In this document: piece after piece, positions 52-40,945 of the stretch
Layout of the letters: each line of letters opens with the position of its first letter
Position numbering within the stretch: position 1 is the stretch's first letter
Source of the DNA: an uncultured Gammaproteobacteria bacterium
GTDB lineage: Bacteria > Patescibacteriota > Microgenomatia > Levybacterales > UBA12049
Assembly (NCBI GenBank): GCA_964490105.1
Contig: CAZAZU010000001.1
Location: 434,361-498,360 of the forward strand
DNA length: 64,000 nt
Direction of reading: 5' to 3'
Position numbers and translations under genes: made by a program
The notes under the pieces: generated by a model
Told to the model about the DNA's origin: nothing
The model's input: the letters and a program-made list of their open reading frames with translations, nothing else
Databases searched by the model: none

Positions 52-1710
52 TCATTTCTTAATTTTAATGTATTTATCCCACATAAACAAACAAAATAAA
101 ATAAGAGCCGAAAATACTGTCATTACAAGCGAGATGGTTTGAAGTCTGGTACTTTTCAAAACCACTTCAATGATATGTTCACCTTCTGGAACTCTTGCCT
201 TAAAAATTCCCTCCTTCGTAACTGTTAAAGGAACGGGAACTCCGTCGATCTTAACTGTCCAGCCAGGGAAATGGGCTATATTTATTAAAATTTCCCCATC
301 CCTGTCCCCTTTTAAAATAAATTTTTCTTTTGTAACACTACTCGAAATCGGACTAATCTTAAAGCCATCTGCTTTAACTCTTTCTTTTGCTGGAGTTAGT
401 TTTGCATTGAAATTAAGCGTATTGAAAACATTTCCCGGGCTATTAGTTCCATTTGTAAAATTCTCTCTTTTTAAGTAGTACTGATCATCCCTAAGATGAT
501 GGAATGGAGCCTTAATATAATCTAGTGAAAATCCGATGGAAAGCACTATTAATAATATTGAAATGATTATTCTCACTTTTTCATTTTTTATTAAATTCTG
601 AGATACTATAAAACCTGCCAGAAAAGAAGACGTTAGAATCACGACACTTAAAAGTCTCCATGGGAACTGAACATATGGAATAAAAGGAACATTTTTCCAA
701 GTAAATTCAGAAAAGGGTGTTATTAAAAAAACCGCAAAAATAAATATGAACAAGAAGTATCCGATCATATTGTTTCTTTTTTTAAAGATAAAAATAAGTA
801 AACAAATCATGACTACTAGTATATTTGCTATGCCAATTTGAAAAGACATTTGATCAGGAACATTCACTCCTGAGAAACCATAGCCCCAGGAAGAATAAAT
901 TAGTTTATAAACAACCGGAAAATGCTGGGTTGGATCAAAAATTTGAAGCCCTCTGACGTATTTAGTTTCGAGAATTGCAGGTAGCCAAAAAATCGCTGAA
1001 AGCCCAGTCCCCAGAACTGAAATAAAAATCGCAGAACTAAATTCCTTTAATTTATTTCGAGCGTCTTGTTTCTTAGCAAAGGAAAGAAAAAATGCATACG
1101 AAAGAAAAAAGGTAAAAAATACGACCGCAAGGATATTATGCGCAAGAACGATTAGCGCAATAGAACATGACGAAAATACAAAATATTTTATTTTTTTTGA
1201 ATCAAAATAAGATTGATATCCCCATAAAAGCATCGGCGCCAAGCCAAGACTCCATACTTCCCCAACAGACCCTCTAACATAAATGTCTAAAAGATGGTAC
1301 GGAGAGTACGCATAGAAAACAGCACTTACCACCGCCCCCCATTCACCCCAAAACTTCTTAGTCCATAAATAAAAGAATATTGATCCCACGATTGTAGCTA
1401 GGATCATATTTAACTTGAGTGAATCAATAAAACTAAATCCCAGTAAATGAGTGAATGATGCTACGTAATTTGGGAGTGGGTACACATAATTAAAAAGCGG
1501 AATTCCATAACCATTATTAAAATCTTGTGCCCATCTCGGATAAAGCGTCCCCTCATTTATAGATTTAAAAAACTGCTCAAACCTCATCACATGATATTCG
1601 CCATCATGAGTAGGAGGAATCCCGTAAGAAACCAGACTCCATACAGACAAGCCCGATATTAGTACTGCAAGAAATAGAAACTTATATTTTAAAAATGCTT
1701 CCTTTATCAT
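52..1710 (-). CDS. Polytopic membrane protein, family A (five paralogues in this window); putative GT-C-like glycosyltransferase with a C-terminal extracytoplasmic beta-rich domain
   Basis: 552 aa with about 10 predicted TM helices. Shares the motifs HDGEYH, DIYVRGSVGE, QFPWRLLSV and C-terminal FPGW with ORFs 12805-14484, 14471-16168, 34160-35818 and 35806-37446. The 29-nt overlap with the upstream ORF suggests the true start may be an alternative codon. Confidence 0.55.
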   Translation of the reverse strand: MIKEAFLKYKFLFLAVLISGLSVWSLVSYGIPPTHDGEYHVMRFEQFFKSINEGTLYPRWAQDFNNGYGIPLFNYVYPLPNYVASFTHLLGFSFIDSLKLNMILATIVGSIFFYLWTKKFWGEWGAVVSAVFYAYSPYHLLDIYVRGSVGEVWSLGLAPMLLWGYQSYFDSKKIKYFVFSSCSIALIVLAHNILAVVFFTFFLSYAFFLSFAKKQDARNKLKEFSSAIFISVLGTGLSAIFWLPAILETKYVRGLQIFDPTQHFPVVYKLIYSSWGYGFSGVNVPDQMSFQIGIANILVVMICLLIFIFKKRNNMIGYFLFIFIFAVFLITPFSEFTWKNVPFIPYVQFPWRLLSVVILTSSFLAGFIVSQNLIKNEKVRIIISILLIVLSIGFSLDYIKAPFHHLRDDQYYLKRENFTNGTNSPGNVFNTLNFNAKLTPAKERVKADGFKISPISSSVTKEKFILKGDRDGEILINIAHFPGWTVKIDGVPVPLTVTKEGIFKARVPEGEHIIEVVLKSTRLQTISLVMTVFSALILFCLFMWDKYIKIKK

Positions 1711-3520
1711 CGCTATAGATTAGTTGGAAATCTTCAAAATGATTAATATTCATAATAATAGAGTTTTTTGCAAAATCATCCTTATAAATAATAATATACG
1801 ATATTTCCTCTTCTTTCAGAATATTCCTCAAGCGCTTAATATCCTGAGTTTCAAACATAATACGCCTTTTGGTTAATCTTTCTTCAGGGTTTCCTCCATA
1901 AAGAAAAATATAATGACTTCTACCTAGGTAAGTTTTTTTTCCAGCAATTGATGCCGGGTCGTAGATTTCTCCATTTGTTAAAACTAAACTATCCATAGGT
2001 ATGTTAACTTGAATAAACTTTGTAATTCCATTTGATTTATAGTCTGGAATCAGCTCCCTGACATCATTTTTTATTGTTAAAAAATTTAGAAAACCAGAAA
2101 ACAAAAAAATACAAATTAAAGGCGGAATAAATAATTTATAAATATGATTTTTCTTAAATAGATAAATAATTGCATAAGAAGCATAAAAATAAAATGAGAT
2201 GATCCATAAGTTAAGGAATTTATGATTATCAAAAATATCTTTAGTAAACTGGAAAATATTCGGAAGAATAAATAATGGCAGAAACAAGATCAGAAGCGAT
2301 CCCTTCGCCCTGCCCGCTTTCCAAATTCCAATTATAAAAAAACTTATAGATAACCCAAAATTCGCAATCCAATACTTGGAAAACGATGAAATACTTAAAT
2401 TATCGGCCACCATAAAACCTGGGTTAAAAATTATTGAATTATCGGAATTTTTTATTATCGAGAAAAGCTGAGGAGAGGAAATGATAATTGCTGTAAATAA
2501 CATGTACACATAACCCTTCCTATTTATTGGCATAATTACTAAAGACATCGCAATAATTATTAGTCCTGATAAAAAAATTTGAGTATTCCAAAATGGCATT
2601 AAGCCAATCAGGCTTCCTAAAATTATTGCCTGAAAAACAGATATTTTTTTATTTACACTTGTGTAAATAAAATAAACCAATAAAAGTACTGCGGCTAATG
2701 CCACTATGAGATGCCTCTGATTTATAAATGTATTCAGAGTCCAGAATACGGAAATTGTATTATTTCCGAATGGTGAATCTAGGAGAAAAACAGAATTATT
2801 CCATATTTCTCTAAAACTAATTCCTTTATCTACGAAAAAGCTTATAAAAGAAATACTAGGAGTGAAAAGAAAAAATATTACGCTTAATAACCCGACTGCT
2901 TTACTCTCAAAAAACAGCATCCCTAGTCGAAAAATAATCAACAATAAAAGAGTAAAGAATATTGCAGAAATTAGATTAAATGCAAGCGAAATATTAAGTC
3001 CCAAATACTCTAAAATACCCACATAAAAATCAAACATAAAATGATAAACAAGATTAGAATTCCCAAAAAAAGGTATCTCTGCAGGAAAATTGTTACCCAA
3101 AGAAAAAGAACGCACGAATGGAATATGAGCACCGAAATCAAGATAAGTATTAGATGAAATTAAAAAATTTCCCTGATCATATGAAAATGATTTATTCATA
3201 ATATAGTAAGATAAAACAAAAAATAAAATACTAATAACAGTAGTCGGGGACCGCATATTTCTTGCTTCAAACAAAATATTTTTTATACTTCTTACTTTTA
3301 AAACTAGCAATATAAATGAAATTATAAAAAAGAAAAGAAGACTTTTATGCAAATCATGAGTCAAATATGAAGTGACAATATAAAGTAAAGAAACTGAAAG
3401 TACAGACCCTAATATAAATGCTGAAATTGCATTTATTAATTTATCCTTTATATTAAAAATGCGAGCAAGGAAAAGCCCATCTAAGAAAACTAATCCCAAG
3501 AAAACAAATCCAATCATCAA
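1682..3520 (-). CDS. Polytopic integral membrane protein, putative GT-C-type glycosyltransferase
   Basis: 612 aa, more than 12 hydrophobic segments, with a soluble C-terminal domain. Its stop overlaps the next start by 4 nt (ATGA), suggesting translational coupling. Confidence 0.5.
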   Translation of the reverse strand: MMIGFVFLGLVFLDGLFLARIFNIKDKLINAISAFILGSVLSVSLLYIVTSYLTHDLHKSLLFFFIISFILLVLKVRSIKNILFEARNMRSPTTVISILFFVLSYYIMNKSFSYDQGNFLISSNTYLDFGAHIPFVRSFSLGNNFPAEIPFFGNSNLVYHFMFDFYVGILEYLGLNISLAFNLISAIFFTLLLLIIFRLGMLFFESKAVGLLSVIFFLFTPSISFISFFVDKGISFREIWNNSVFLLDSPFGNNTISVFWTLNTFINQRHLIVALAAVLLLVYFIYTSVNKKISVFQAIILGSLIGLMPFWNTQIFLSGLIIIAMSLVIMPINRKGYVYMLFTAIIISSPQLFSIIKNSDNSIIFNPGFMVADNLSISSFSKYWIANFGLSISFFIIGIWKAGRAKGSLLILFLPLFILPNIFQFTKDIFDNHKFLNLWIISFYFYASYAIIYLFKKNHIYKLFIPPLICIFLFSGFLNFLTIKNDVRELIPDYKSNGITKFIQVNIPMDSLVLTNGEIYDPASIAGKKTYLGRSHYIFLYGGNPEERLTKRRIMFETQDIKRLRNILKEEEISYIIIYKDDFAKNSIIMNINHFEDFQLIYSDDKGSIFKI

Positions 3521-4659
3521 TTACTATTTTTATAGGGTAGAAACTTAAGGAAACTTTTTATATCTATATTTTTAAAATCTTTAAGAACATATAAAACTAC
3601 GGCTATCAAGGGTATGTATGTTGCTAAAATTTTAATGATTGGTGTAACTCCAAAATGAGTTCCTAAATACATATAAGGAACGTACCTGAGCATTAGTCCA
3701 AATGAAAGAACAAATCCTAAAATCTTTAAAGTCTTTATATTTGTAAGTGAAATAAAAGTTAAAAACCATATTCCATACCATGGATATATTTCTTCTCTTA
3801 TTGGCGAAAGTAAGAAAACAATAAGCATTAAAAGTGCACTAGATATATATATTTTTTCCCAGTTAATTTTTCTTTTTTTAATTTTCTGAAAAATATAGTA
3901 AGTAAAAATTGGAATAAGAAATATTGTTGCGTATTTTATAAAAATAGAGATTATCAAAAGAATTAACGCTAAATATATTTTTTCTTTTTTTAGCAAATAA
4001 AATGAAAGAAGCGCAAAGAACATCATAGAAACATCATTATGTCCGGAAACGAATGTTTCAATTAGAACCAGAGGGCTTAACGCAAAATATGCTACGCTTT
4101 CAACTCTACCGGTCAATTTATAAATCAAATATAATATTCCAAAATAAAAAACCACCACAAAAAGCTTGAAGTTAAACAAAGTTAAAATAAAATTATTTAA
4201 TCCCAACAAATAAGGAATGCCGGTCATTGTCACCCATGAGGGACCATATAATGCCACTTTATTCGCTGCGTGAGTAAAGTTTAAATAGGGATCGCCAATA
4301 AATTCTATAGGCATAACAATAAATGGATTTTCCTGATACCAAAACAAAATTTTTGCTGTAAATATATAGTTAAAAATATCATACGAAAGAATTGCTGGGT
4401 ATGATAAGAAAAGAAAAACAGCGGAAAGCATTATCAGATTCATCAATATTTTTTGCGTAATTTTTCTTAGGAAATAGAAGTAAAAAATAAAAAAAACTGA
4501 AATAAAAGATATATACAGCAATGTCACTATTTCTCTATTTAGATTTGCAAAACCCGTATATAAATTTGTCATATAAATCAAGTTTTGATCTACAAATAAG
4601 TAAGAAAAGAAGGTAAATCCCAGGAGAAATGTCCCATAGATAATTATTAATAACCTCAT
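3517..4659 (-). CDS. Polytopic membrane protein, family D (paralogue of 39015-40190)
   Basis: 380 aa. The motif SYDIFNYIFTAKI..YQENP...YGPSW aligns with SYDLFNYIFDAKI..YHENP...YGPVW in ORF 39015-40190. Confidence 0.5.
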   Translation of the reverse strand: MRLLIIIYGTFLLGFTFFSYLFVDQNLIYMTNLYTGFANLNREIVTLLYISFISVFFIFYFYFLRKITQKILMNLIMLSAVFLFLSYPAILSYDIFNYIFTAKILFWYQENPFIVMPIEFIGDPYLNFTHAANKVALYGPSWVTMTGIPYLLGLNNFILTLFNFKLFVVVFYFGILYLIYKLTGRVESVAYFALSPLVLIETFVSGHNDVSMMFFALLSFYLLKKEKIYLALILLIISIFIKYATIFLIPIFTYYIFQKIKKRKINWEKIYISSALLMLIVFLLSPIREEIYPWYGIWFLTFISLTNIKTLKILGFVLSFGLMLRYVPYMYLGTHFGVTPIIKILATYIPLIAVVLYVLKDFKNIDIKSFLKFLPYKNSN

Positions 4660-5186
4660 AAAACGCTATTTCTTATGTTAATAGAGTCATTTAAAATCTT
4701 CTTAAGATTAAGATTAGTCGGAGTGGAATTTTCCGGATTCCATTCAACCTCTTCAGGCAAATTCTCGCTAAGATGCCCTAAGGTTTCCATATGCTTCCTG
4801 GAAGCTTCTTTCAGTATCAGATCTCTCTCGGAAATATCTTTTCTATTTTTTTCCGCTTTTTCCAATGCGGGATGAATATTTTTAAAATATTCGTCTGACT
4901 TTTTAAGAGCATCTGCGGCGAGTAAATATTGCTTATACTCAAACAGGGTCTTTGCTTCTACTAAGTAATGATCCGCCTCTTTTAAGTTGTAATCAAATTT
5001 ACCAAAATCTCCAAAGTATATATACTTACTTATTCTAGAAATAAATAATCTAGGCTGATATAAAAAGTTACCCGGCATGTAGGAAGGGTAGGGTAATACG
5101 TAGCTTGATTCAGCAAATACAAACTTAGGGAAGGTTAAATTTATTATGAAAACAACAAGAATAGCTAAAAATATGTACTTAACCAT
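4656..5186 (-). CDS. Secreted/periplasmic protein with a signal peptide; possible DUF5667-like family typical of CPR genomes
   Basis: N-terminal signal sequence ending FVFA. The YVLPYPSYMPGNFLY motif is followed by a helical region rich in K, E and A. Confidence 0.45.
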   Translation of the reverse strand: MVKYIFLAILVVFIINLTFPKFVFAESSYVLPYPSYMPGNFLYQPRLFISRISKYIYFGDFGKFDYNLKEADHYLVEAKTLFEYKQYLLAADALKKSDEYFKNIHPALEKAEKNRKDISERDLILKEASRKHMETLGHLSENLPEEVEWNPENSTPTNLNLKKILNDSINIRNSVL

Positions 5187-6153
5187 TTTTACTATGCCAA
5201 AGCCAAGCTGATTTTACTATAGTTTCAATGTCAGAATATTTAGCTTCAAATCCTAGCTCTGTTTTTATCTTAGCTGGATCAGCAATTAACCTGTCAGCAT
5301 CCCCAGCTCTCCTTGGACAGGCCTCAATATCTGTTGTTAAGCCACTTACGCTCATGACAGTTTCAATAACTTTTTTATTTGAGACACCATTTCCGGTTCC
5401 TACATTGTAAAAATATCCACCCTTATTATTTAATATATGATTAAGCGCTAAAAAATGTGCTTCTACGAGATCAAGTACGTGTATATAGTCCCTAAGACAT
5501 GTTCCATCAGGAGTATCATAGTCAGTTCCAAACAATTTAAAACTACTCTTATTCATTACTGCCTTAATGGCAAGGGGAATTATATGTGTTTCAGGATTAT
5601 GTCCTTCCCCCATTTCACCATTAAAATCTGCGCCACTTGCATTAAAATATCTTAAACACGCAAAATTTATCAGTTGATTATCAGAACGCATAGATTTTAA
5701 GTATTCTTCAGTATTTAACTTTGATTCCCCATAAGGACTGGTCGGATTCTTCTCGTGATCTTCAGGAATTGGAATAATTTTTGGATTTCCATACACAGCT
5801 GCCGTGGAACTAAAAATATAATTATATACATTGTTCTCTGATGCAATTTTGAATAAATTTTTTGAACCTTCAGTATTATTTTCAAAATATATTTGAGGAT
5901 TTCTAGTAGATTCCTCAACTGAAATTAATCCAGCGAAATGAAGAATTGCGTCAATCTTTACTGACGAAAAAATTTCATTCAAAAGCTGAGTATTTCTTAT
6001 GTTTCCAATAATTAGTTTCGCTTTTGAATTTACCGATTCCTTATGTCCCCTTTCTAAACTATCCAAAACAATAACCTCATATCCTCTTTTGACAAGAGCG
6101 TCAGTCATAAAACTTCCGATATATCCAGCTCCACCGGTAACTAAAACTCTCAT
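5179..6153 (-). CDS. galE: UDP-glucose 4-epimerase (NAD-dependent epimerase/dehydratase)
   Basis: N-terminal Rossmann motif VLVTGGAGYIGS and the YxxxK region; 324 aa is typical GalE length. Confidence 0.88.
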   Translation of the reverse strand: MRVLVTGGAGYIGSFMTDALVKRGYEVIVLDSLERGHKESVNSKAKLIIGNIRNTQLLNEIFSSVKIDAILHFAGLISVEESTRNPQIYFENNTEGSKNLFKIASENNVYNYIFSSTAAVYGNPKIIPIPEDHEKNPTSPYGESKLNTEEYLKSMRSDNQLINFACLRYFNASGADFNGEMGEGHNPETHIIPLAIKAVMNKSSFKLFGTDYDTPDGTCLRDYIHVLDLVEAHFLALNHILNNKGGYFYNVGTGNGVSNKKVIETVMSVSGLTTDIEACPRRAGDADRLIADPAKIKTELGFEAKYSDIETIVKSAWLWHSKNG

Positions 6154-6248
6154 ACCAATATATTACAATAAGCAAAAAAAAATCGCTAATCCACTTTTCG
6201 CCTACTTCTTGATATTTGTCTTGTTTATGTGATAAGAATTTAGAATTA

Positions 6249-6932
6249 ATGTCATACGATAAATCAAAAATTAGCATAATAATTGCCTGCAAAAACGAAG
6301 GAGAAGGTATTCTTAAAATATTAAAATCTGTCAAAAATTATTCAGAGGATATATTGGTTATCGATGGTCATTCTGAAGATGGTACCAGAGAAATAGCAAA
6401 AAAAATGGGTGCTAGATTTTTTCTTGATCATAAATTAGGAAGAGGTGATGCTCTAAAAATAGGAATAAAAAATGCAAAAAAAGATATATTGGTTTTTTTT
6501 GATGCAGATGGATCACATAACGAAAAATATATTCCCTTGCTAGCAGCTCCGATTTTAAAAAACGAGGCCGACTTAGTTATTGGATCCAGACGAACTGGCG
6601 GAAGCTTCGACATGAATATTGATTTTATTGGAATAGTTAGATCAGTGGGATCGGATTTTTTAACTGCAATTGTAAATCACAAGTATAAAGTTAATCTAAC
6701 CGACATCTTATTTAGTCTCAGAGCTATTAAAAAATCAACTGCTATTGACCTTAAACTTAAATCAGATGATTTCTGTGTTGAGCAGGAAATGATCGTATCT
6801 GTACTTAAAAAAGGTTACGCTATAAAAGAAATTCCAACTCAAGAAATGGCAAGAAAATGGGGAAAATCAAAACTAAAAACCTTGACGGGTGTAAAATTCA
6901 TTTATTCATTATTGAAACAGACTTATTTTTAA
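6249..6932 (+). CDS. GT2 glycosyltransferase (DPM1/GtrB-like polyprenyl-phosphate sugar synthase type)
   Basis: ISIIIACKNEGEGI, VIDGHSEDGT and the FFDADGSH DXD motif. The ORF-track start at 6216 is a TTG; the first ATG is at 6249. Confidence 0.8.
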   Translation: MSYDKSKISIIIACKNEGEGILKILKSVKNYSEDILVIDGHSEDGTREIAKKMGARFFLDHKLGRGDALKIGIKNAKKDILVFFDADGSHNEKYIPLLAAPILKNEADLVIGSRRTGGSFDMNIDFIGIVRSVGSDFLTAIVNHKYKVNLTDILFSLRAIKKSTAIDLKLKSDDFCVEQEMIVSVLKKGYAIKEIPTQEMARKWGKSKLKTLTGVKFIYSLLKQTYF

Positions 6933-6950: not shown

Positions 6951-7550
6951 TTAAACCTCACAATATTTAAGAGCCTGATCTGGAATCAAAATAATCCAGA
7001 AAATAGATAACGCTATTAATACAAAATAAGTTAATACAACCATTTTTGTATTCTTGGAACTTAGAAACTTAAAATGACCGTAAAAAGATAGTAAATTAAA
7101 AGGAATTGCGACTACTAGTAGTTTATAAATAAAAGATAATTTAAAATTAATAAGAACTTCAAATAACGGGATTCCAAACGAAATCAGTATCAGAAATCCT
7201 AATTTTTTATTTCTGTTTTTTGCATTGAGAAAATACCAGATTGAAATAACTACCCCAAAAACACCAACAAATGTTAACAACGTAATTAAAAGCTGAGGAT
7301 CAAGAAAATGAGTATATCTTTTATAGACGTCTATAAAAAATTGGAGTAACTTGTTATGAAATGTTCTTGCTAGCAAAACGGGTAAACCCTGATCGTGATT
7401 TATGGCATAAATAAGCTGAAGCTCTAAATCATATAAAGAGAAATGATAATAATCAAAAAAATTCTTGCACGCAGTCCACGCTTTTAAAGGAATCAATTGT
7501 AAAACTAATAATCCAAGAATTAAAAATACCTTTATTTTCATAATTTCCAA
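6951..7550 (-). CDS. Small polytopic membrane protein, unknown function
   Basis: 199 aa with a signal-like N terminus and 4-5 hydrophobic segments; overlaps the upstream ORF by 13 nt. Confidence 0.4.
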   Translation of the reverse strand: MEIMKIKVFLILGLLVLQLIPLKAWTACKNFFDYYHFSLYDLELQLIYAINHDQGLPVLLARTFHNKLLQFFIDVYKRYTHFLDPQLLITLLTFVGVFGVVISIWYFLNAKNRNKKLGFLILISFGIPLFEVLINFKLSFIYKLLVVAIPFNLLSFYGHFKFLSSKNTKMVVLTYFVLIALSIFWIILIPDQALKYCEV

Positions 7551-29140: not shown

Positions 29141-29187
29141 TCTAACAATTTTTGATTTTTTATCAAAGTTTATGCTAGGATTAAGTT

Positions 29188-31986: not shown

Positions 31987-33428
31987 TAATGATAAAGATT
32001 TTTTATATCAGATATTATTTGTTTTCCTGATAATAAATAAATATTAGATATGTAAATTACCCCTCCTGAAATTATAACAAAGAAAAGAGTTAAAAGATTT
32101 TCAATTAATAAATCTGCAAGTATAAATGTACCTAATGCCATAATTATTGCAGCAATCGCGGGTTTGTAAACACTTTTAATAAAATTAAAATCTACTACTT
32201 TTTTAACCAGATAAATCGTAATGAATATTGTTAAAGTAACTACGAATGACGCAATAGCGACTCCATTAAAGCCCCAGAGATAAATAAATAGAGGTGTTAT
32301 GCTCCAGGTCATGAAAGTCCATAAAACCATTAGCTTTAATGTAGTTTTTACTCTGCCAGTTGCATCAAGCACATTTACAAGAACTGAGGACATCGAGGAA
32401 ACTATCGCATTAAGAGAGAAGAAAATAAGACTTAATAACGCTGGCTCCCATTTATTAGCCCACCCTGGAATATACATCATCATGTATGGTGAAACGATAA
32501 TTAGACCAACCAATAAAGGAAATAAGATAAGAGTTGTAAAAAAGAGTGACTTCTCAATTGCAGTTCTTAAAAAAACTTTATTGTCTTGAATTCTTGAGTA
32601 AGAAGAAAATGTAACTTTTGTAACACTATCAACAATATAACGGTAAACGAAAAATGCAATTCTTTGCGCAAATCCAATGTAACCAATTTGAGCGAAAGAT
32701 AAAAACTTAGTCAGGATTACTGTCAAGAAATCATCTTTAATTGTCGCAAGAATATTTTTTGCCTGGAACTGTACTCCAAATTTTAAATTACTAATTGAAG
32801 CTCTGTAAATCCCTACCTTTGGTTTCCATGGTGAAATTAGATAATAAAGAGGAATCCCGACAAGACTAGAAACAAGAAATGCCCATGAGTAACTATCAAC
32901 ACCGAATTTATTTAGAACGAGTGCGATAAGAATAATATTAAAAATTATTGATTCCCCAATCTGAGGAATTACAAGTTTTCCAAAATTAATATTTCTCTCA
33001 AGCAGAATTGAGGGAATCATCTTGAAGGATGAAAGAAAAATGGTAAAGACCAAAACTAATAGAAGTCTTCCGCCCTCATCATTAAGACCGAAGAATGATT
33101 TTATCTGTCCGATGAAGATTAAAAAAACGAGAAATATTCCAAAAGTTACTAAAAACTGAATTGTAAAAACTGTGGCAATATCTTCTTTTTTTAAATCTTC
33201 TTTTTTTTGAATTAATGCAGCTCCTAACCCAAAGTCTGTAATAAAACTTATTACTCGCTGAATTGCAACTACTGCAGTGTATATTCCCAGTTCTCTCGCA
33301 GATAAAATTACAGAGATCGTTAGGAAAGCTACAAAATTAATTAACTGAAGAATAAGGCTTCTACTTGCCAGCGCAAAAATTCCGTGAACGGTTTTCTGAG
33401 AAACTTTTTTTATATCCAGTTTGTCCAT
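31986..33428 (-). CDS. Wzx-like flippase of the MOP/PST family (oligosaccharide-lipid translocase)
   Basis: 480 aa with about 12-14 TM helices; the N-terminal region LILQLINFVAFLTISVILSARELGIY is typical of polysaccharide biosynthesis proteins. Confidence 0.7.
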   Translation of the reverse strand: MDKLDIKKVSQKTVHGIFALASRSLILQLINFVAFLTISVILSARELGIYTAVVAIQRVISFITDFGLGAALIQKKEDLKKEDIATVFTIQFLVTFGIFLVFLIFIGQIKSFFGLNDEGGRLLLVLVFTIFLSSFKMIPSILLERNINFGKLVIPQIGESIIFNIILIALVLNKFGVDSYSWAFLVSSLVGIPLYYLISPWKPKVGIYRASISNLKFGVQFQAKNILATIKDDFLTVILTKFLSFAQIGYIGFAQRIAFFVYRYIVDSVTKVTFSSYSRIQDNKVFLRTAIEKSLFFTTLILFPLLVGLIIVSPYMMMYIPGWANKWEPALLSLIFFSLNAIVSSMSSVLVNVLDATGRVKTTLKLMVLWTFMTWSITPLFIYLWGFNGVAIASFVVTLTIFITIYLVKKVVDFNFIKSVYKPAIAAIIMALGTFILADLLIENLLTLFFVIISGGVIYISNIYLLSGKQIISDIKNLYH

Positions 33429-33434: not shown

Positions 33435-34163
33435 TTAGGGTTTTTGCTGCCAGGGTTTTGTAGAAAAAAGTCTCCACATCACTTTTATATCTCCCCAGAT
33501 AGTTGATACAAGTCTAACGGTTGACCCAGGGTTATCAACCCAATGAACTGGCTCTTCAAATATTTTATATCCGCTTTTTTCTCCGATAATTAATAATTCT
33601 CCGTCAAAAAACCAATCATTATCTTTAACCTTTGGTATAAGATCCCTAACTATCTTTTTAGTTACTCCTTTAAATCCGCACTGTGCATCAGTAAAATGCG
33701 TTCTAAACCAAAATTGAATAAAAAAGAAATTAAGAGTTCTTGACGTAATCTCTCTAAGCATTGTTCTTCCCTCCACTTTAGCGCCTTTTGCAAGCCGTGA
33801 GCCAATCGCTATGTCATATCCATTCTCAAGGGCTTTAAGGATGTTTGGAAGGTGCTTTAGATCAGTTGAAAGATCAAGATCCATGTACACACAATAGTCA
33901 GCTTCTGAACTACTCCATGCCCTCTTAACGGCCCTTCCTCTACCTTTCTCTTCTAGTCTAAAGAGTTGGATTCTTGGATTATTTTTAGATAAATTAGCAG
34001 CAATTATAGGCGTGTTATCGCTCGATGCATTATCAGCTATGGTTATTTTCCAATCGTACCCATTAAGGTTTTTGGAGCAATAATCCGCAAGCTTTTTTAC
34101 ATTTACTTCAAGCTCTTTTTCCTCATTATAAACCGGGATTGTAATTTCTACTGTAGGTTTCAT
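33435..34163 (-). CDS. GT2 polyprenyl-phosphate sugar synthase (DPM1/GtrB-like), short form
   Basis: ITIPVYNEEKEL, TIADNASSDNT and YMDLDLSTD. Confidence 0.82.
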   Translation of the reverse strand: MKPTVEITIPVYNEEKELEVNVKKLADYCSKNLNGYDWKITIADNASSDNTPIIAANLSKNNPRIQLFRLEEKGRGRAVKRAWSSSEADYCVYMDLDLSTDLKHLPNILKALENGYDIAIGSRLAKGAKVEGRTMLREITSRTLNFFFIQFWFRTHFTDAQCGFKGVTKKIVRDLIPKVKDNDWFFDGELLIIGEKSGYKIFEEPVHWVDNPGSTVRLVSTIWGDIKVMWRLFSTKPWQQKP

Positions 34164-35818
34164 TTTTGGTTACGCTTGGCATAAATTATACCAGCTACGA
34201 GGATTAAAACACCAGACAGAGTTAGCAAATTAGCTAATTTTTGAATCATAGTTTCTTCAAATTTACCTACTAATTCACTCTCCCCCTTTGGAACCTTAAC
34301 TATCACTCCTGTTTTAGATTCTAATGCTTCTACGCTTTCTCCATTAACATAATATTTCCATGACGGGAAATATGGAATGTGAATAGTCAATTCGTTTTCG
34401 ACATTTGATTTTATCTGAGCTGAAATCCTGTTTGTCTTGGTATTAAGATCCAAAACCTCAATATTTTCTCCGGTAATTTTTTCTTTAATTATTTCCTCAG
34501 GACTAACTGGCCTTAAAAATGATTTAGGCAAATACTCATCAGAAATTTTTGACGTGGTCCAATTTAAAGAATGTTTATTTGTATATTCTTCTGAGGTTTT
34601 TGTTAAATAACTTTGCGGAACAAATAATTTGGAGTATAAAATTATTGGCGACACAATGATCGAAACATAGACAAAAAGAAATAACAAATTATATTTTTTT
34701 AAATTTATTTTTGATAATGCATATACTACAGAACCTGCAAGAAATGATGAAAAGAAAGAGGCAGCTAAAAGAAACCTCCATGGGTATTGAAAATAATCCA
34801 TGTATGGAATTTTCCAAATTAAACTTGACTGACTCACCATTAAGAACATTACGCCCGTCAAGCAAATACCCACAATAAATATCACTATTGATTTAATTTT
34901 TTCTTTTTTGAATAAATAGACTCCTGCGATTATTGAGAATAGGGAAAATAAAATATGCAGCTTTCCAAGCCTAAAAGACAAACCATCAACGCAACCAGGA
35001 ATAGAGCCTCCAAACATCCAAGGACTATCCCAGAATTGCCTGACACAAACAAAATGATCCGCGTAATGCGCTTTTCCCCCAATTGTTGAAAGGACATTTG
35101 TATAGTTCATTTCAAGAAGTGTTGGGAGAAAATAAAATGACGCAATCAAGATACCAAGTACTGGAATTCCCAAAATGAGTACTCTTCTTTTTAATGTAAA
35201 CAAAATAAGTGCAGCTAATATTATGAACGGACTAATCATCATTGCAGTCAAATTATGAGATGCAATTATCCCAGTGTAAGATAAACTCCCAAGAATTATA
35301 AATAAGAAATTATTTGATTTGTAATACTTCCATAAAGAATAAAAAACTAAAGGAATAAAAAAATATGCATAAACTTCCCCTATGTCTCCCCTGACATAAA
35401 TATCTAGCGCATGGTATGGCGCATAAACATAAAAAGCGGCAGCAACTAATCCTCCGATCTTTCCCCAGAATTCTTTTGCCAATAAATACATAGCAAAAGC
35501 AGATCCAATTACTGCGACTGCAATCATTATTTTTGTAGCCGTTAATGCATCAAATCCTAAAAAATTAAAAAATGCGCCTATATAGTACGGTATCGGACCA
35601 TAAAAATTAAAAATAGGATATCCATATCCATAACCCAAATCAGGAACCCATCTCACTGGAAACATTCCATCAGTTAGTGCAACTTTCATCTCATGAACTC
35701 TCTGGATTTGAGTGTCGTCGTGAATATTAAAAAAACCAGATTTAAAAAGTGGAAGAACAGTTATAATACTTAGCATTAAAACAGTTAAGGCGGTTATTTT
35801 CTTTTTTAAAATTTCCAT
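34160..35818 (-). CDS. Polytopic membrane protein, family A
   Basis: 552 aa; HDDTQIQRVHE, DIYVRGDIGE, FQYPWRFL and C-terminal PYFPSWKYYVNG. Confidence 0.55.
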   Translation of the reverse strand: MEILKKKITALTVLMLSIITVLPLFKSGFFNIHDDTQIQRVHEMKVALTDGMFPVRWVPDLGYGYGYPIFNFYGPIPYYIGAFFNFLGFDALTATKIMIAVAVIGSAFAMYLLAKEFWGKIGGLVAAAFYVYAPYHALDIYVRGDIGEVYAYFFIPLVFYSLWKYYKSNNFLFIILGSLSYTGIIASHNLTAMMISPFIILAALILFTLKRRVLILGIPVLGILIASFYFLPTLLEMNYTNVLSTIGGKAHYADHFVCVRQFWDSPWMFGGSIPGCVDGLSFRLGKLHILFSLFSIIAGVYLFKKEKIKSIVIFIVGICLTGVMFLMVSQSSLIWKIPYMDYFQYPWRFLLAASFFSSFLAGSVVYALSKINLKKYNLLFLFVYVSIIVSPIILYSKLFVPQSYLTKTSEEYTNKHSLNWTTSKISDEYLPKSFLRPVSPEEIIKEKITGENIEVLDLNTKTNRISAQIKSNVENELTIHIPYFPSWKYYVNGESVEALESKTGVIVKVPKGESELVGKFEETMIQKLANLLTLSGVLILVAGIIYAKRNQK

Positions 35819-37446
35819 AATTTCTTAGCTCCTAATATTAATAGCGCAAATAAACTTACAACTGAAATTACATTACTTAGCATTCTAGTTGACGTCTCAC
35901 TAAATGATGCAGCAACAGTGTGATCTCCCGCAGGCAGTTCTAAATCCATAACTCCTCTAGTATTATTATAGTTTATTTTTTTTAGAGTGCCATTTACGCT
36001 AACTTTCCATCCAGGATAATATATTGTATTCATTCTAACAATTCCTTCCTGATTCAATTTAACTGCAAAAGTAATATTTTTGGAATTGAAAGAAATATTT
36101 TCTATGTATCCCGATCCTTTAATAATTTCAATTTTTTCTTTTGATCTTTCGAATGGAAATTCCTTAACCCAAAGCGGCATCAGTTCCTTCGAAGAAGTAG
36201 TAGTAGCATCATTTGTAAAATAAAATCCTTCTCCTCTATTTACATATTCTGATGGTTTTGAAAAAGGAATATAGAGAGCAAGAGCCATTAAAACTATTGC
36301 AAAAGATAAAATTTTAAAAAACCTAAAATTTGACAGACATCCCGCAAGCAGGGAAATAATTAAACCAATCTGAGATAAAACCACCCAAGGATAATTTATT
36401 TCTGAAAGAAGAGGAAGCTTCCAGACAAATTTCGATTCTTTAACAAGCAGAAATGTGAATATAAAAAATCCTAAAAATAAAACAATTACTAATGTTTCAT
36501 TTGATGTTCTTTTTAGTAAGTTTATTTTTCGTAGTAATAATGTTATGGAAATTAAACCCAATACAATAAGAAATGGCCAGCCAATTTGATATGTAAAAGG
36601 GCTGATTGGATCAGTCGGAGTTCCGTAACCCCATGGTGAATTTAAAAGTTGTTTTAAATTTACATAATATAAATTTCTATCAGCAATCGGGGTTTCTGAC
36701 AAAAGTATATTCGCCTTTTCTAAAAGCGCAGGTATCCAAAAAAATGCAGAAAGACCAAGACCTGAAATTAAAACAAAGAGATAATTTTTTAGAAGACTGA
36801 GATCATTCTTTTTAAAATTTCCGAGAAAAAATAATCCTAAAGTCAGCGTAAACAATATCGCCATAATATTATGAGAAGTAATTAAGATAGCGTAAGAAAA
36901 AGCTCCAACTAATTTAAATAAAATAGAATCTGGTTTTTTAATTAATGATGCAAAGGAATAAAGTACAATTGGAAAAAGCATAAATGCAAAACTTTCTCCA
37001 ATTGACCCTCTTACAAATAAATCAACTAGTCTGTACGGGAAATATAAATATAGAACAGAACTTATTATTCCCGCCCAATTATTTTCCCAAATCTTTCTGG
37101 AAGCCAAAAACATGAAAAAAGCAGATGTCGGGATTGTAATTGCAAACATTAATTTAACGGTATCCACAAATCCAATTCCCAACATGTGAATCGCAACTCC
37201 TAAATAGTACGGAAATGGATATGTAAAATTAAATAATGGATAACCATAACCGAAGTTCAAATTTCCACTATACCTTGCTGGTATCTGCATGTCCCGAAGC
37301 GTTCTGAACATATCTGAGAGTCTTACGACTGCCCACTCGCCATCATGGGTGGGAAAATATCCTGAGTGAATGTAAGGAATAAGAAGAGGGATAGAAATTA
37401 ATAAGGAAAAGATAAAAACTGGAAGATAAAATTTTACAAATCTCAC
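35806..37446 (-). CDS. Polytopic membrane protein, family A
   Basis: 546 aa; THDGEWAVVR, DLFVRGSIGE, INYPWVVLS and C-terminal YYPGWKVSVNG. Confidence 0.55.
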   Translation of the reverse strand: MRFVKFYLPVFIFSLLISIPLLIPYIHSGYFPTHDGEWAVVRLSDMFRTLRDMQIPARYSGNLNFGYGYPLFNFTYPFPYYLGVAIHMLGIGFVDTVKLMFAITIPTSAFFMFLASRKIWENNWAGIISSVLYLYFPYRLVDLFVRGSIGESFAFMLFPIVLYSFASLIKKPDSILFKLVGAFSYAILITSHNIMAILFTLTLGLFFLGNFKKNDLSLLKNYLFVLISGLGLSAFFWIPALLEKANILLSETPIADRNLYYVNLKQLLNSPWGYGTPTDPISPFTYQIGWPFLIVLGLISITLLLRKINLLKRTSNETLVIVLFLGFFIFTFLLVKESKFVWKLPLLSEINYPWVVLSQIGLIISLLAGCLSNFRFFKILSFAIVLMALALYIPFSKPSEYVNRGEGFYFTNDATTTSSKELMPLWVKEFPFERSKEKIEIIKGSGYIENISFNSKNITFAVKLNQEGIVRMNTIYYPGWKVSVNGTLKKINYNNTRGVMDLELPAGDHTVAASFSETSTRMLSNVISVVSLFALLILGAKKLWKF

Positions 37447-37448: not shown

Positions 37449-38990
37449 TTATTTTTGTTCAACTGAATAAACTGTGTAATATACACGATCATTCTTTTTA
37501 AACTCAGATATTTTTTTAAGCGGCCAGTCATCTGGCGCATCTCCTGCATACTCGCATGCGATGCAAGGCTGATAGAAGATAAAATATGTAGGCATTTTTT
37601 TTGCTGACTCTAAAACCTCAGCAGGTATTTCTTCAATAGGCCAATAACCTTTTATTATTACATTTGGATTATTTGCTAAATAAATTTCTAAAGCATATGG
37701 CATCAGACCGAAAGTTCCTTCTGTCCCTATAAATATTTTTTCATCTTTAGATTTATCTTCAAAAAACTTAACACTTTCCTTTACTCCGCCCCCCGCTGGC
37801 CAATCGCTAATATACTGCGCATTATCTGCACTAGCTATTGCTGCCTTAGAAGGATTGAATATAAAATCCATTGATACTTTTGCAGGGTAAAGTGTGAATA
37901 AAATGATTGCCAAAGCAGAAACCGCATAATAACTATTTAATTTTCTTTTACTTAAGTAATTATTTAGTAAATCAATAATTTGAGTAAGACCTACCGCTGC
38001 TAAAGGTAAAAGATAAAGACTCATGAAAAATATAAATCTAGGAAAAATTACTCTACCAAATAAAGCGAGAGCTATTAAAGGGAGCGCAAAGTAAGCTATG
38101 AGTAAAAGTTTTTCTTTTATAAATTTTTTGGATAAAAGCGAAACCAAAATTAAAATTAAATAAAATGGTGTGAGATAAGTAAAAAGCCATGTTAAAAGTC
38201 CTCTTAAATTTCCCAAAAATAAATTTATATTATCCATAATTGGAATACTGAATGGGTAATAAACAAAAATAGTATTTTTCTCTTTTATGATATGGAAAAA
38301 TGGAGAGAGTCTTAAGCTGTTATATAAAACCTCAGCAATTCCAATTGCTACAACCGCAAATAATCCCAACACAAATAATTTTTTTAATATTTTTTTCTGT
38401 TTAAAATTAAAAAGAATTAGCGTTAAGGGGAGAAGAATAATACTAAAGTTAGCGCTTGTCTTAGTGAGCATTCCTGCACCAAGTATAGCTCCTAAAATTA
38501 GGGCCACATCAAGCCTTAGTTTTCTGACTAAAAGAATTGAAAAATAAATTGCATAAATTGCGAAAGCCCCTACCAAACTGTCATAAAGAGCCAGGCGATC
38601 ATAAACTACTGCAAATGGATATGCCACATAAAGGATTGATGAGACAAATGCAGCTCTTTTGCTTTTAAATAATTCGTAGGTAAGTAACCATAATCCAATT
38701 AGAGAAAATAATCCGGCAACAACTGAAACAAGCCTCACAGCTACGATTGGGTCTTCAATAAGTCTTAAAAATATCATTCCAAACCAAATTAACATGGGTT
38801 GTTTTCCGTCAGTTAAAGAAATGAATCGCCAATTTGCATCTTGTGAAGCAATTTGTGCCCATCTTATGTAGAGAGCCTCATCTGTAAAAATTGGAAAGTT
38901 TCCAAGAATAATTAATCTTGAAACTAGAAAAGATATAAGAATTAGAAAACCTAAAAGAATTTCTTTTTTAAATTTTATAACTAAATTCAT
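37449..38990 (-). CDS. ArnT/PMT-like GT-C glycosyltransferase (divergent)
   Basis: GNFPIFTDEALYIRWAQ...DGKQPMLIW...AVRLVSVVAG. Confidence 0.7.
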   Translation of the reverse strand: MNLVIKFKKEILLGFLILISFLVSRLIILGNFPIFTDEALYIRWAQIASQDANWRFISLTDGKQPMLIWFGMIFLRLIEDPIVAVRLVSVVAGLFSLIGLWLLTYELFKSKRAAFVSSILYVAYPFAVVYDRLALYDSLVGAFAIYAIYFSILLVRKLRLDVALILGAILGAGMLTKTSANFSIILLPLTLILFNFKQKKILKKLFVLGLFAVVAIGIAEVLYNSLRLSPFFHIIKEKNTIFVYYPFSIPIMDNINLFLGNLRGLLTWLFTYLTPFYLILILVSLLSKKFIKEKLLLIAYFALPLIALALFGRVIFPRFIFFMSLYLLPLAAVGLTQIIDLLNNYLSKRKLNSYYAVSALAIILFTLYPAKVSMDFIFNPSKAAIASADNAQYISDWPAGGGVKESVKFFEDKSKDEKIFIGTEGTFGLMPYALEIYLANNPNVIIKGYWPIEEIPAEVLESAKKMPTYFIFYQPCIACEYAGDAPDDWPLKKISEFKKNDRVYYTVYSVEQK

Positions 38991-39014
38991 CTGTGTAAAT
39001 TATACTAGAAACCG

Positions 39015-40190
39015 CTATTCTTGTGCACCGATAGATTTAGGGAGCTTACCATAAACATAAACAAAAGCTATAAAAACTAACGGCGTTATAATAGTTAATG
39101 CGTTTCTAATTGGAACTCCGATTCCGTCCCAATTTCCAAAATAAAGTAGGACTGTATATCGAAACAATAATCCCAAAGACAAACCAATCGATAGGCTCAA
39201 AACATATTTATTTGGCTTAAGTAGTGCTACGAATGGAAGAACCCATATGAAATACCAGGGCTGAATTTCTATTTTAGATAGCGCATAACCTGATGCAATA
39301 AGCATAGAAATAATAGAAAGAATTATAAATTTATTATTATCTAGCTTCTCCTTAAAAGGAATAAAGCTTACGATTAAAGGCATCAATAATCCAATTGTAG
39401 GAATTTTTACCTGTGAAGAAATTATTACCAAAATAATTGCGAAGATTCTTTTTCTTAAAAAGTATAAATAAATTCCTGATAAAGCGAAAAAAACCATAAC
39501 AATGTCATGATGAGATGAAACTAGACTTTCAATGATTATCAGCGGGTTAAGTGCAAAAAATGTTGTGTTAAAAATAGCATGATCTGGATTTATTTTTTTA
39601 TTTATTTTGTAAATTAAAAATACCGATGCTAAGTAAAATCCTGTAATTAAAAACTTGAAAAGAAAAAAAGTTAGAAGAAAGATATTCATTCCAATAAATG
39701 AAACTGGAATCGTTAATCCTAGCCAAACAGGTCCATACGGATAGACTCTGTGCGTCCACCGCATAAAAGAAAGCATTGGATCCTCAGGATAGTCCATTGC
39801 TCGGTGAAAATATGGATTTTCGTGATAGAAAGTTACAATTTTTGCGTCGAAAATATAATTAAATAAATCATAAGAAAATGCATTATATGAAAATGAAAGA
39901 ATCGCAGCAGTAGAAACTATCAAAACAATCAAGTCTTTTATCTTTAAATCGTTTCTAATTGCTTTTCTTAAAAACCATACGTAGTAAGCAAACATTAAAA
40001 TTAATATTGAAATGAATAGAATCGTAGAAAGCGGCCGATTAAAATAACCTATATATTGAAAATTCTTTTGGATTGACTGCCAGATTGAAGCTTGAGAGAG
40101 CGTTAGGCTCAAGTCAATTTGAGTAAAGGAATAAAAAAAGAGCAGAACAATTACTAAAAAAAAGGAATATTTTCTGATCACCTCGATCAT
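39015..40190 (-). CDS. Polytopic membrane protein, family D (paralogue of 3517-4659)
   Basis: 391 aa; the shared motifs are listed under 3517-4659. Confidence 0.5.
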   Translation of the reverse strand: MIEVIRKYSFFLVIVLLFFYSFTQIDLSLTLSQASIWQSIQKNFQYIGYFNRPLSTILFISILILMFAYYVWFLRKAIRNDLKIKDLIVLIVSTAAILSFSYNAFSYDLFNYIFDAKIVTFYHENPYFHRAMDYPEDPMLSFMRWTHRVYPYGPVWLGLTIPVSFIGMNIFLLTFFLFKFLITGFYLASVFLIYKINKKINPDHAIFNTTFFALNPLIIIESLVSSHHDIVMVFFALSGIYLYFLRKRIFAIILVIISSQVKIPTIGLLMPLIVSFIPFKEKLDNNKFIILSIISMLIASGYALSKIEIQPWYFIWVLPFVALLKPNKYVLSLSIGLSLGLLFRYTVLLYFGNWDGIGVPIRNALTIITPLVFIAFVYVYGKLPKSIGAQE

Positions 40191-40945
40191 AGATTATATT
40201 TTCCTGAAAATTTATTTAATGTAATTTTTCCTAAATCAAAAATGCCATTTATAGAGTCTTTAATAGGACTTACTCTTCGAGACTCTACATAAAGCCATTC
40301 TACTGGAACTTCTTTAATCCTATACCCCATTTTATTTGCAAGGAATAAAAGCTCAACGTCAAAACCGGCTGTAACGTTTGATCCATGAATCTCTGAAAAG
40401 CCATTATGGAGCGTATTTATTTTCTTAAATAGCCTATCTGCAGCTTCTTCGGTAAACATTTTAAACCCACATTGAGTATCTTGAATCTCATAAATTCCCA
40501 CCATAGCTTTTCTAAGAATTATCATACTTCTAGACATCACACGCCTGGAAAAAGGCGAACCTTTTCTACTTCTGCTTCTAGAGCCGATCACAACATCATA
40601 GTTCTTTTCAAAAAAAGGCAAAAGCTTTTCTGCCTCCTCAATTGGCGTTGCCTGATCCATATCAGTAAAAAGACGAATTTCTCCTCTAGCCTCTAACATT
40701 CCTTTTGTAACAGCACCTTCTTTTCCGGAATGTGACCCTTTTATCAATCTAAAATTTTTGTTTTCTTTGGCATATCTCTCGGAAAATTCTGAAGATCCAT
40801 CGTCTGAACCATCATCAACAATAATTACTTCATATGTATATTTTTGACGAGTTAAATAATGATCTATTTTATCCAGTACACCTTTTCGAAGATTGGGCAT
40901 TTCATTATATGAGGGGATAACAACGGAGAGATAAACTTTATTCAC
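40187..40945 (-). CDS. GT2 polyprenyl-phosphate sugar synthase (DPM1/GtrB-like)
   Basis: LSVVIPSYNEMPNL, VIIVDDGSDDGS and LFTDMDQATP. It is the first gene of the long minus-strand run. Confidence 0.82.
   Translation of the reverse strand: MNKVYLSVVIPSYNEMPNLRKGVLDKIDHYLTRQKYTYEVIIVDDGSDDGSSEFSERYAKENKNFRLIKGSHSGKEGAVTKGMLEARGEIRLFTDMDQATPIEEAEKLLPFFEKNYDVVIGSRSRSRKGSPFSRRVMSRSMIILRKAMVGIYEIQDTQCGFKMFTEEAADRLFKKINTLHNGFSEIHGSNVTAGFDVELLFLANKMGYRIKEVPVEWLYVESRRVSPIKDSINGIFDLGKITLNKFSGKYNL

Follow-up and report, generated by a model that had tools for sequence, protein, structure and literature searches.

A contiguous cluster of GT-C and GT2 glycosyltransferase genes in Levybacteria as a putative extracytoplasmic glycan-assembly locus

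What might a bacterium build with 17 large membrane glycosyltransferases encoded almost one after another? The question is raised by a 64-kb stretch of contig CAZAZU010000001.1 (GCA_964490105.1, positions 434,361 to 498,360; hereafter the window), which comes from a Levybacterales member of the Patescibacteriota. Across positions 52..40945, two thirds of the window, the map of open reading frames (ORFs) shows 33 back-to-back ORFs of at least 150 amino acids (aa), nearly free of gaps and with 29 of the 33 on the minus strand. All but four small proteins among them carry a glycan-assembly signature. Seventeen are large polytopic proteins of the GT-C type, whose genes take up 27.6 of the 40.9 kb; the others are nine GT2 enzymes, one GT4, one Wzx-type flippase, GalE and the four small proteins. 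An initial annotation, made from the sequence alone, had proposed one large glycan-assembly locus of about 35 genes with about 20 GT-C-like proteins. The ORF map and Pfam and NCBIfam scans bear out both the locus and the GT-C nature of these proteins, while the counts come down to 33 and 17, the second having been a modest overcount. We consider it likely, judging from sequence and predicted structure, that the cluster serially assembles or decorates a complex extracytoplasmic glycan from polyprenyl-phosphate sugars, by what would be a multiplexed form of multi-component transmembrane glycosylation.

The packing of the genes is as expected for a few long operons. Neighbors are spaced by -50 to +62 nucleotides (nt), most of them overlapping by 1 to 50 nt or sitting less than 25 nt apart, and the genes are translationally coupled. 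The one exception is a gap of 283 nt (29141-29423), in which we find no convincing gene or terminator, the sole match being promoter-like; the second-largest intergenic gap is 62 nt (6154-6215). On the right the cluster ends at a tRNA-Glu(CTC) gene (41031..41105, plus strand), 86 bp from the first cluster gene, o40187. On the left it is cut by the edge of the window and continues past position 1: in the window's own strain (locus L001, 3803-6144), a GT4 gene and a second Wzx-type flippase gene follow o52. Relatives add a further short GT2 and a PMT_2 gene left of the equivalent point (L082, 18731-21509; L085, 13427-21824), and in L085 the leftward extension also holds an epimerase, a polysaccharide deacetylase and a formyltransferase.

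To which families do the 17 polytopic proteins belong? Assignments were made by Pfam and NCBIfam scans, all-against-all BLASTP, hhalign profile comparison, predicted folds and precomputed Pfam annotation of orthologues, and resolve six sequence families: five PTPS_related/YfhO-like proteins (family A), one YfhO protein, five PMT_2 proteins (family B), two ArnT-like proteins (family C), two MptA/B-family proteins (family D), plus E and F. By Pfam, profile-profile comparison or predicted fold, none of the large polytopic proteins is transporter-like except the expected Wzx.

Family A, a five-member family of then uncharacterized proteins in the initial annotation, is confirmed by BLASTP (24 to 54% mutual identity) and can now be identified as PTPS_related/YfhO-like. 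All five genes are on the minus strand. PTPS_related scores above threshold in o52 (52..1710, 552 aa; 47.8 bits, with YfhO at 44.9 bits and an HDGE motif after the first transmembrane [TM] helix), o12805 (12805..14484; 44.2 bits) and o34160 (34160..35818; 45.4 bits). It falls just under threshold in o35806 (35806..37446; 25.4 bits), which is tied to o52 by BLASTP (E = 7e-67), and o14471 (14471..16168), with no Pfam match of its own, has 54% identity to o12805. The separate 752-aa protein, predicted to be YfhO-like, matches Pfam YfhO at 95 bits (25813..28071, minus strand).

Family B is made up by BLASTP of o7538, o17317, o18996 and o20599, with o37449 (B2) as a distant member. PMT_2 is above threshold in o7538 (7538..9070, minus strand, 510 aa; 34.4 bits), o18996 (18996..20648, minus strand; 45.9 bits), o20599 (20599..22257, minus strand; 57.3 bits) and o37449 (37449..38990, minus strand; 62.2 bits), and below it in o17317 (17317..18999, plus strand; 22.2 bits), which BLASTP links to o7538 (E = 4e-43). 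The loop-1 DE motif said to mark five ArnT/PMT-like enzymes is indeed present in all five PMT_2 proteins: IDEA in o7538, MDEA in o17317, WDEA in both o18996 and o20599, and TDEA in o37449. The PMT family proper (PF02366) exceeds its cutoff only in o18996 (32.1 versus 22.7 bits) and is borderline in o37449 (22.3 bits). PMT_2 also takes in ArnT-type lipid glycosyltransferases.

The remaining proteins are harder to place. Searches of PDB sequences returned nothing meaningful for o9072, o1682 and o39015 or for the family D and family F profiles, and fold comparison was therefore needed. The predicted structure of o9072 (C1; 9072..10580, minus strand, 502 aa, without a Pfam match) has a predicted local distance difference test (pLDDT) score of 91 in its AlphaFold model; the top Foldseek matches are ArnT (5f15/5ezm) at template-modeling scores of 0.61 to 0.62, followed by PglB, DPY19 and Emb. 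Its proposed partner, o10581 (C2; 10581..11957, minus strand, 458 aa), has a sub-threshold PMT_2 match of 20 bits. This pairing finds no support by BLASTP (E = 1.2), yet a profile of 39 o9072 homologues aligns with o10581 over 356 columns (hhalign probability 97.4%, E = 1e-11), and the two have in common a (F/W)x(Y/F)DxARD motif after TM1, FWYDPARD (invariant) in C1 and FDFDAARD in C2. C1 homologues were found only in Microgenomates, the named ones being Levybacteria, Woesebacteria and Gottesmanbacteria.

Family D comprises o3517 (3517..4659, minus strand, 380 aa) and o39015 (39015..40190, minus strand, 391 aa), paired from the outset and 38% identical by BLASTP. Our own Pfam scan gave no match, and the assignment comes from relatives: 2158 homologues carry precomputed PF26314 (MptA_B_family), some with PF09594 in addition. 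These include the o3517 orthologues in L082, L084, L085 and L086, which bear PF26314, and the homologues of o39015, which bear PF26314 and in some cases PF09594. NCBIfam matches of o39015 to MptA (49.6 bits, cutoff 439) and MptB (20.7 bits, cutoff 40) are both sub-threshold.

Families E and F are likewise recognized from structure and profiles. The family E protein o1682 (1682..3520, minus strand, 612 aa, likewise lacking a Pfam domain) is predicted to have a GT-C fold with a C-terminal globular domain like that of oligosaccharyltransferases. Its model is of high confidence (pLDDT 93, predicted template-modeling score 0.93), and the top matches in both fold searches are all GT-C, with DPY19, STT3, AglB, PglB, AftA and ArnT making up the top 18 of Foldseek. 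A word-index search of 5.8 billion clusters yielded 104 homologues, without a Pfam domain over the homologous region. Family F (o22962; 22962..24890, minus strand, 642 aa) is represented by 901 clusters at E < 1e-3, and a sample of 42 members gave no Pfam family; a TgpA_N match of o22962 was set aside as noise, being weak and absent from the other sampled members. The F and E profiles align over 567 columns (hhalign probability 99.9%, E = 1e-31) and the invariant D131 of F coincides with D128 of E, so that the two form one uncurated GT-C-fold family. E/F and C1/C2 are two GT-C families without a Pfam or CAZy-style model. We rejected membership of E/F in the oligosaccharyltransferases, as a regular-expression search finds neither W[WY][DE] nor DxD in o1682 or o22962. 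Compared with STT3/AglB/PglB and DPY19, the closest folds to E, the E/F proteins lack WWDxG and DxD and share only 9 to 12% sequence identity, a resemblance at the level of fold.

On which side of the membrane would these enzymes act? In the A, B, C and YfhO proteins, a K/R-rich N-terminus precedes TM1, and an acidic motif follows 5 to 20 residues on: DE in B, HDGE, HDD, MDG or FDA in A, and D-x-A-R-D in C. Because of these K/R-rich N-termini, the positive-inside rule places the motifs outside the cytoplasm, as the initial annotation had suggested should be checked. In E, the D128 loop follows TM4 in the model, with K/R-rich loops at 23-27 and 75-90, and would lie outside the cell after four helices; in F, D131 sits in a loop after the N-terminal helix bundle. 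Family D has an invariant SYDxFNYIFDAK block after TM3, preceded by a K/R-rich loop predicted to be cytoplasmic. The sidedness of all these motifs is a prediction from sequence.

Extracytoplasmic GT-C enzymes of this kind would draw on lipid-linked sugars, and candidate synthases are at hand. The nine GT2 genes of the cluster (6216, 11954, 22264, 24887, 29424, 30170, 31081, 33435 and 40187) include four short ones, grouped by BLASTP, that encode proteins of 227 to 252 aa with no TM helix; PpgS and human DPM1 are soluble as well. The best PDB matches of the short GT2 proteins are Pyrococcus DPMS (5mlz, E ~1e-16), GtrB (5ekp) and ArnC, and the best curated-family matches are AglJ, PpgS (over the full 226-residue model), dolichyl-phosphate hexose transferase, PgfS and ArnC. 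Processive synthases are not among the best PDB or NCBIfam matches. Individually, o6216 (6216..6932, plus strand) scores 83 bits to GT2, 121 to AglJ and 73 to PpgS, with a probable start at 6249 that agrees with the 227 aa of its L082 homologue; o22264 (22264..22965, minus strand) scores 113 bits to GT2, matches 5mlz (E = 1.7e-16), GtrB and ArnC, and finds AglJ and PpgS as best NCBIfam families; o33435 (33435..34163, minus strand) is 93 to 95% conserved in relatives; and o40187 (40187..40945, minus strand), the first cluster gene, scores 93.7 bits to GT2, with matches to 5mlz (E = 7.5e-16), GtrB, ArnC and, in NCBIfam, PgfS. The proposal of four DPM1/GtrB-type enzymes is upheld by these matches, which support a polyprenyl-phosphate sugar synthase type.

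The other five GT2 enzymes look like ordinary cytoplasmic transferases, as does the GT4. All are on the minus strand: o11954 (11954..12808; Pfam GT2, 71.6 bits), a paralogue of o29424 and o31081; o24887 (24887..25816; Pfam and NCBIfam), with one C-terminal TM helix; o29424 (29424..30170; Pfam); o30170 (30170..31081; Pfam and NCBIfam), which is rhamnosyltransferase-like; o31081 (31081..31986; Pfam); and the GT4 gene (28064..29140; Glycos_transf_1, 75 bits). Also on the minus strand are GalE (5179..6153; TIGR01179, 380.5 bits versus a cutoff of 262.3) and the Wzx-type MOP flippase (31986..33428; Polysacc_synt_3, 160.5 bits; NF007773, 114 bits), which directly adjoins the short GT2 gene o33435 in the conserved core, an arrangement resembling gacI-gacK (PMC8035078). 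The predicted inventory of at least nine GT2 enzymes, one GT4, a Wzx flippase and GalE is thereby matched in full.

How could these parts work together? In the known three-part systems, a C55-phosphate sugar (C55-P-sugar) is made by a GT-A enzyme, flipped by a GtrA- or Wzx-type protein and used by a GT-C enzyme with an extracellular DxD-like motif (PMC8035078); one variant has GacI as a soluble GT-A enzyme, GacJ as its small membrane partner and GacK, of the Wzx type, as the flippase (PMC8035078). The GacI/GacK-like variant fits the cluster because its short GT2 proteins are soluble, a Wzx gene is adjacent, and no GtrA was found; the likeness to three-component systems noted at the outset is also supported by the GT-C identities and the short-GT2 matches. 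The donors, flippase role, order of action and acceptor that we infer are as follows. GalE and other nucleotide-sugar enzymes would provide uridine diphosphate (UDP)-sugars, with which the four short GT2 enzymes, and a fifth encoded beyond the left edge in relatives, would charge polyprenyl phosphate with single sugars at the cytoplasmic face. Wzx-type flippases would carry these lipid-linked sugars to the outer face, like streptococcal GacK, and may also flip a short oligosaccharide that the five ordinary GT2 enzymes and the GT4 would assemble on a lipid. The 17 GT-C enzymes would then move sugars singly onto an extracytoplasmic acceptor, each probably with its own linkage or acceptor specificity; the product would be a wall or membrane glycopolymer, or glycoproteins, built up or heavily modified in this way.

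Several points weigh against this model. No GtrA-family flippase is found by Pfam scans among the window ORFs of at least 150 aa. Every match of a short GT2 protein to a curated equivalog model is far under the curated cutoff, and the matches therefore support a class, polyprenyl-phosphate synthase, with sugar and lipid acceptor as yet putative. The steps of the model are read here from genes and predicted folds. Finally, the five ordinary GT2 enzymes, the GT4 and the two Wzx proteins also fit a conventional Wzx-dependent repeat-unit pathway, whose priming enzyme and polymerase or ligase would be encoded elsewhere or be among the GT-C-fold proteins.

Could the locus then be of the Wzx/Wzy type? 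GT2 and GT4 enzymes would then build a repeat unit on polyprenyl diphosphate in the cytoplasm, Wzx would flip it, E, F or another polytopic protein of the cluster would polymerize or ligate it, and the remaining GT-C enzymes would be side-chain decorators only. Two Wzx-type flippases, five ordinary GT2 enzymes and one or two GT4 enzymes suit such a pathway, as do E and F, which have no assigned family, are nearest in fold to oligosaccharyltransferases that move whole lipid-linked glycans and, in E, carry an AglB-like C-terminal domain. The Pfam scan of ORFs of at least 150 aa across the 64-kb window, however, finds no priming phosphoglycosyltransferase (no Bac_transf or WecA/MraY-type initiator), no Wzy_C domain and no chain-length regulator. 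The gene for an initiating enzyme could lie in another part of the genome. Neither E nor F has the WWDxG or DxD motif, the polytopic proteins that lacked a family turn out to have GT-C folds nearest ArnT, oligosaccharyltransferases and Aft, and at 27.6 of 40.9 kb the GT-C genes make up most of the locus and are not accessory to it. We regard such a pathway as possible, if rather unlikely, as the primary role of the locus; like the other alternatives considered here, it is not mutually exclusive with serial transfer by the GT-C enzymes.

A different acceptor is invoked by protein O-glycosylation, in which the PMT_2 and PMT-like GT-C enzymes, and perhaps the others, would modify Ser/Thr-rich stretches of pilins, adhesins, S-layer proteins or other proteins that are secreted or lie in the membrane, with paralogues for different sugars or targets; bacterial Pmt and streptococcal Pgf and GtrB/PgtC2 provide precedents. 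All five PMT_2 proteins have the loop-1 DE motif and two also match PMT, the best match of o40187 is PgfS, which is the GT2 of the protein-glycosylation system of Streptococcus mutans, and GalE is present (compare PgfE). Streptococcal GtrB plus GT-C systems are reported to act on disordered Ser/Thr-rich regions (PMC12041528), and pili and sortase substrates abound on the surfaces of Candidate Phyla Radiation (CPR) bacteria (PMC6744442). On the other hand, PMT_2 is just as much the family of lipid and teichoic-acid glycosyltransferases of the ArnT and GtlB types (PMC8035078). The MptA/B-family and YfhO/PTPS_related members suggest polysaccharide or lipoglycan acceptors, the cluster encodes no candidate acceptor protein, and 17 GT-C enzymes far exceed any known protein O-glycosylation system. 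As the main function of the cluster, we find this unlikely.

Is the cluster a property of the lineage or of one genome? A family D profile scan of 185,579 species genomes gave 343 relatives, of which the best 80 were annotated against the window proteins. Almost all of these 80 are Levybacteria or Patescibacteria metagenome-assembled genomes (MAGs), and the named homologues of cluster proteins are from Candidatus Levybacteria (Levyibacteriota). The core order, short GT2-D-PMT_2(B2)-[variable Y/B/A]-A-A-short GT2-Wzx-GT2, is kept in ~70 of the 80 loci, with 4 to 8 GT-C genes per 21-kb locus. The same tRNA-Glu(CTC) stands upstream of the cluster in all 22 relatives tested, directly adjacent in most, and followed by a short GT2 gene and an MptA/B-like gene it is a synteny marker usable for finding the locus elsewhere. 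Gene order in the left half of the window matches that of the close relative L082 (GCA_964364105.1), E excepted: E is missing in L082 and in the close relative L084, where D leads straight into A, and occupies the same slot (D-E-A-GT4-Wzx) in the distant Levybacteria L085 and L086. This distribution, absence in two close and presence in two distant relatives, implies lineage-specific loss. In L085 and L086, core D and E are ~39 to 40 kb apart on one contig and glycosylation genes run for at least 10 kb further, which makes the supercluster at least 50 kb in these genomes.

Cluster genes have 70 to 95% amino-acid identity to genus-level relatives, compared with 63 to 98% for the flanks; short GT2 and Wzx are best conserved and family A least. 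Variation is confined to some members, namely E, Y and extra B and A copies, with the Y/B/A slot lying between B2 and the A-A pair. The cluster thus appears ancient and vertically inherited, with limited gain and loss. The terms 'island' and 'possibly variable' in the initial annotation accordingly overstated the case, and we discarded a mobile or horizontally acquired island: although the cluster is tRNA-adjacent, the boundary and core order are conserved in relatives and identity is like that of the flanks. It is very unlikely that the locus is an arsenal for antigenic variation or phage defense, made of swappable serotype-converting GT-C/GT2 modules like gtrABC of Shigella and Salmonella, for although E is missing from two close relatives, the slot between B2 and A-A varies in Y and in additional B and A copies, and G+C is below that of the flank (27 to 34% within the cluster versus 35 to 38% on its right side), the core order and tRNA-Glu boundary are kept across the lineage at flank-like identity, gene-family scans of the cluster detect neither integrase or transposase genes nor any phage gene (no scan aimed at repeats or phase-variation tracts was run), and the low G+C may be explained by the AT-rich codons of hydrophobic membrane proteins.

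The cluster's two ends resemble the products of an ancient duplication of one module. On the left the order is D-(E)-A-GT4-Wzx-short GT2-PMT_2, and on the right it is short GT2-D-PMT_2-A-A-short GT2-Wzx; between them (3517-4659/52-1710 versus 39015-40190/34160-37446), BLASTP identity is 38% for D and ~28% for A. We also note that 'uncultured Gammaproteobacteria bacterium' is the deposited name of many MAGs with the cluster (binchicken/SPIRE-style assemblies), and that single ones are labelled Pacearchaeota, Deltaproteobacteria or Eisenbacteria; such labels are almost certainly placeholders or wrong taxonomy.

The four small proteins complete the cluster. The first, of 176 aa with an N-terminal TM helix, matches DUF5667 at 35.5 bits (4656..5186, minus strand) and lies between GalE and D in L082 and L084 to L086. 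For the other three, o6951 (6951..7550, minus strand; 4 TM helices, kept in L082 and L084), o16188 (16188..16781, plus strand; 197 aa with a single TM helix, conserved in L082 and L083) and o16781 (16781..17359, plus strand; 3 TM helices), Pfam matches at E values up to 1 are noise only. The proteins o6951 and o16781 are paralogue-like: a motif, R(T/A)FHNK...DP, occurs in both (pairwise E = 0.014), and each gene adjoins a B-type PMT_2 gene, o16781 on its upstream side. Both have counterparts in relatives, and the proteins may serve GT-C enzymes as accessory subunits.

To the right of the tRNA are housekeeping genes, for S51 peptidase, Lon, Nth, Nramp, an RmlC-like protein, topoisomerase IB, a histidine kinase and the mevalonate pathway. 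This last is complete (55483-63848, minus strand, 15 kb from the cluster), with diphosphomevalonate decarboxylase, two GHMP kinases, thiolase, HMG-CoA synthase and HMG-CoA reductase, among which lie a HAD hydrolase and a methyltransferase; a complete pathway is unusual for a CPR bacterium of minimal metabolism and is a plausible source of polyprenyl carriers. The RmlC-like dTDP-4-dehydrorhamnose 3,5-epimerase (48638-49159, minus strand) scores 145.8 bits against a cutoff of 155.75, with no rmlABD nearby; apart from this gene, no teichoic-acid, rhamnan or other backbone genes are recognized in the window. The type IB topoisomerase (Topoisom_I plus Top1B_N_bact; 52559-53617, plus strand) is of a type relatively uncommon in bacteria. 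Two Peptidase_S51 paralogues lie 10 kb apart (41095-41859 and 51155-51778, both minus strand), and two Ser_hydrolase paralogues are adjacent at 50052-51162.

What would such a cluster mean for its bearer? CPR bacteria, or Patescibacteria, are ultra-small, mostly episymbiotic and of stripped-down metabolism, and their cell surface is the site of host recognition and attachment. To our knowledge, the chemistry of that surface is essentially undescribed. Against this background, the lineage keeps a contiguous cluster of at least 46 to 55 kb with at least 17 GT-C enzymes and 4 to 5 lipid-sugar synthases, roughly as many GT-C enzymes as Mycobacterium tuberculosis has, encoded in ~6% of a genome one fifth as large. 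Such an investment speaks for a central role of an elaborate extracytoplasmic glycan in Levybacteria biology, and the cluster provides gene targets for glycomics, for interpretation of cryo-electron tomography and for heterologous reconstitution. A bolder interpretation is that the Levybacteria supercluster is an ancestral, independently evolved CPR counterpart of the mycobacterial machinery, with E/F as a WWDxG-less oligosaccharyltransferase or ligase acting en bloc, which we hold to be doubtful. If true, Levybacteria, and probably other Microgenomates, would spend ~6% of a ~0.8-Mb genome on a major envelope glycan of complex chemistry, made almost wholly at the outer face of the membrane, and E/F, as a new GT-C family, would combine an oligosaccharyltransferase-like core with an AglB-like C-terminal domain to transfer a Wzx-flipped oligosaccharide to protein or wall.

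The components are of known kinds; what appears new is their multiplicity, contiguity and lineage-wide conservation, together with the two uncurated GT-C families. The view that such a system had not been described holds as far as the searchable literature goes, an open-access subset and hence weak evidence, in which we find no description of a GT-C expansion or of such a cluster in CPR bacteria. A survey of CPR protein families reports hypothetical membrane families enriched in Microgenomates and does not mention glycosyl- or mannosyltransferases (PMC6744442).

How, then, does the proposed serial glycosylation by GT-C enzymes compare with known systems? The same scheme of GT2 synthase, flippase and GT-C enzyme is found in the Gram-positive systems CsbB/GtcA/YfhO, GtlA/GtlB, GacI-GacJ-GacK-GacL and Lactococcus CsdAB/CD/EF (PMC8035078). 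Like the cluster, these use both the YfhO and the PMT_2 families and have an extracytoplasmic acidic motif on the GT-C enzyme. Whereas the Gram-positive systems have one GT-C enzyme per synthase and one to three pairs per genome, usually scattered, the cluster has 17 GT-C enzymes from six families and 4 to 5 synthases in a single operon-like arrangement within a ~0.8-Mb genome. It differs further in that no GtrA-type flippase was found in it and in its two GT-C families without a Pfam model.

Many serial extracytoplasmic GT-C enzymes are likewise employed in mycobacterial assembly of lipomannan (LM), lipoarabinomannan (LAM) and arabinogalactan (AG), by PimE, MptA/MptB/MptC, Emb, Aft, Pmt and PpgS/Rv3779. 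The likeness extends to polyprenyl-phosphate monosaccharide donors, to the MptA/B family (D) and to short soluble synthases resembling PpgS. M. tuberculosis has roughly 15 to 20 GT-C enzymes, a number comparable to that of the cluster, with the genes scattered over a 4.4-Mb genome whereas those of the cluster are contiguous. In contrast to mycobacteria, no Emb- or Aft-type sequence homologues were found, E resembling AftA at the fold level only; the MptA/MptB sequence matches are sub-threshold; and the bearer is an unrelated CPR bacterium without a known mycolate-type envelope. With these differences, the nearest parallel in number and logic appears, by analogy, to be the mycobacterial LM/LAM/AG machinery.

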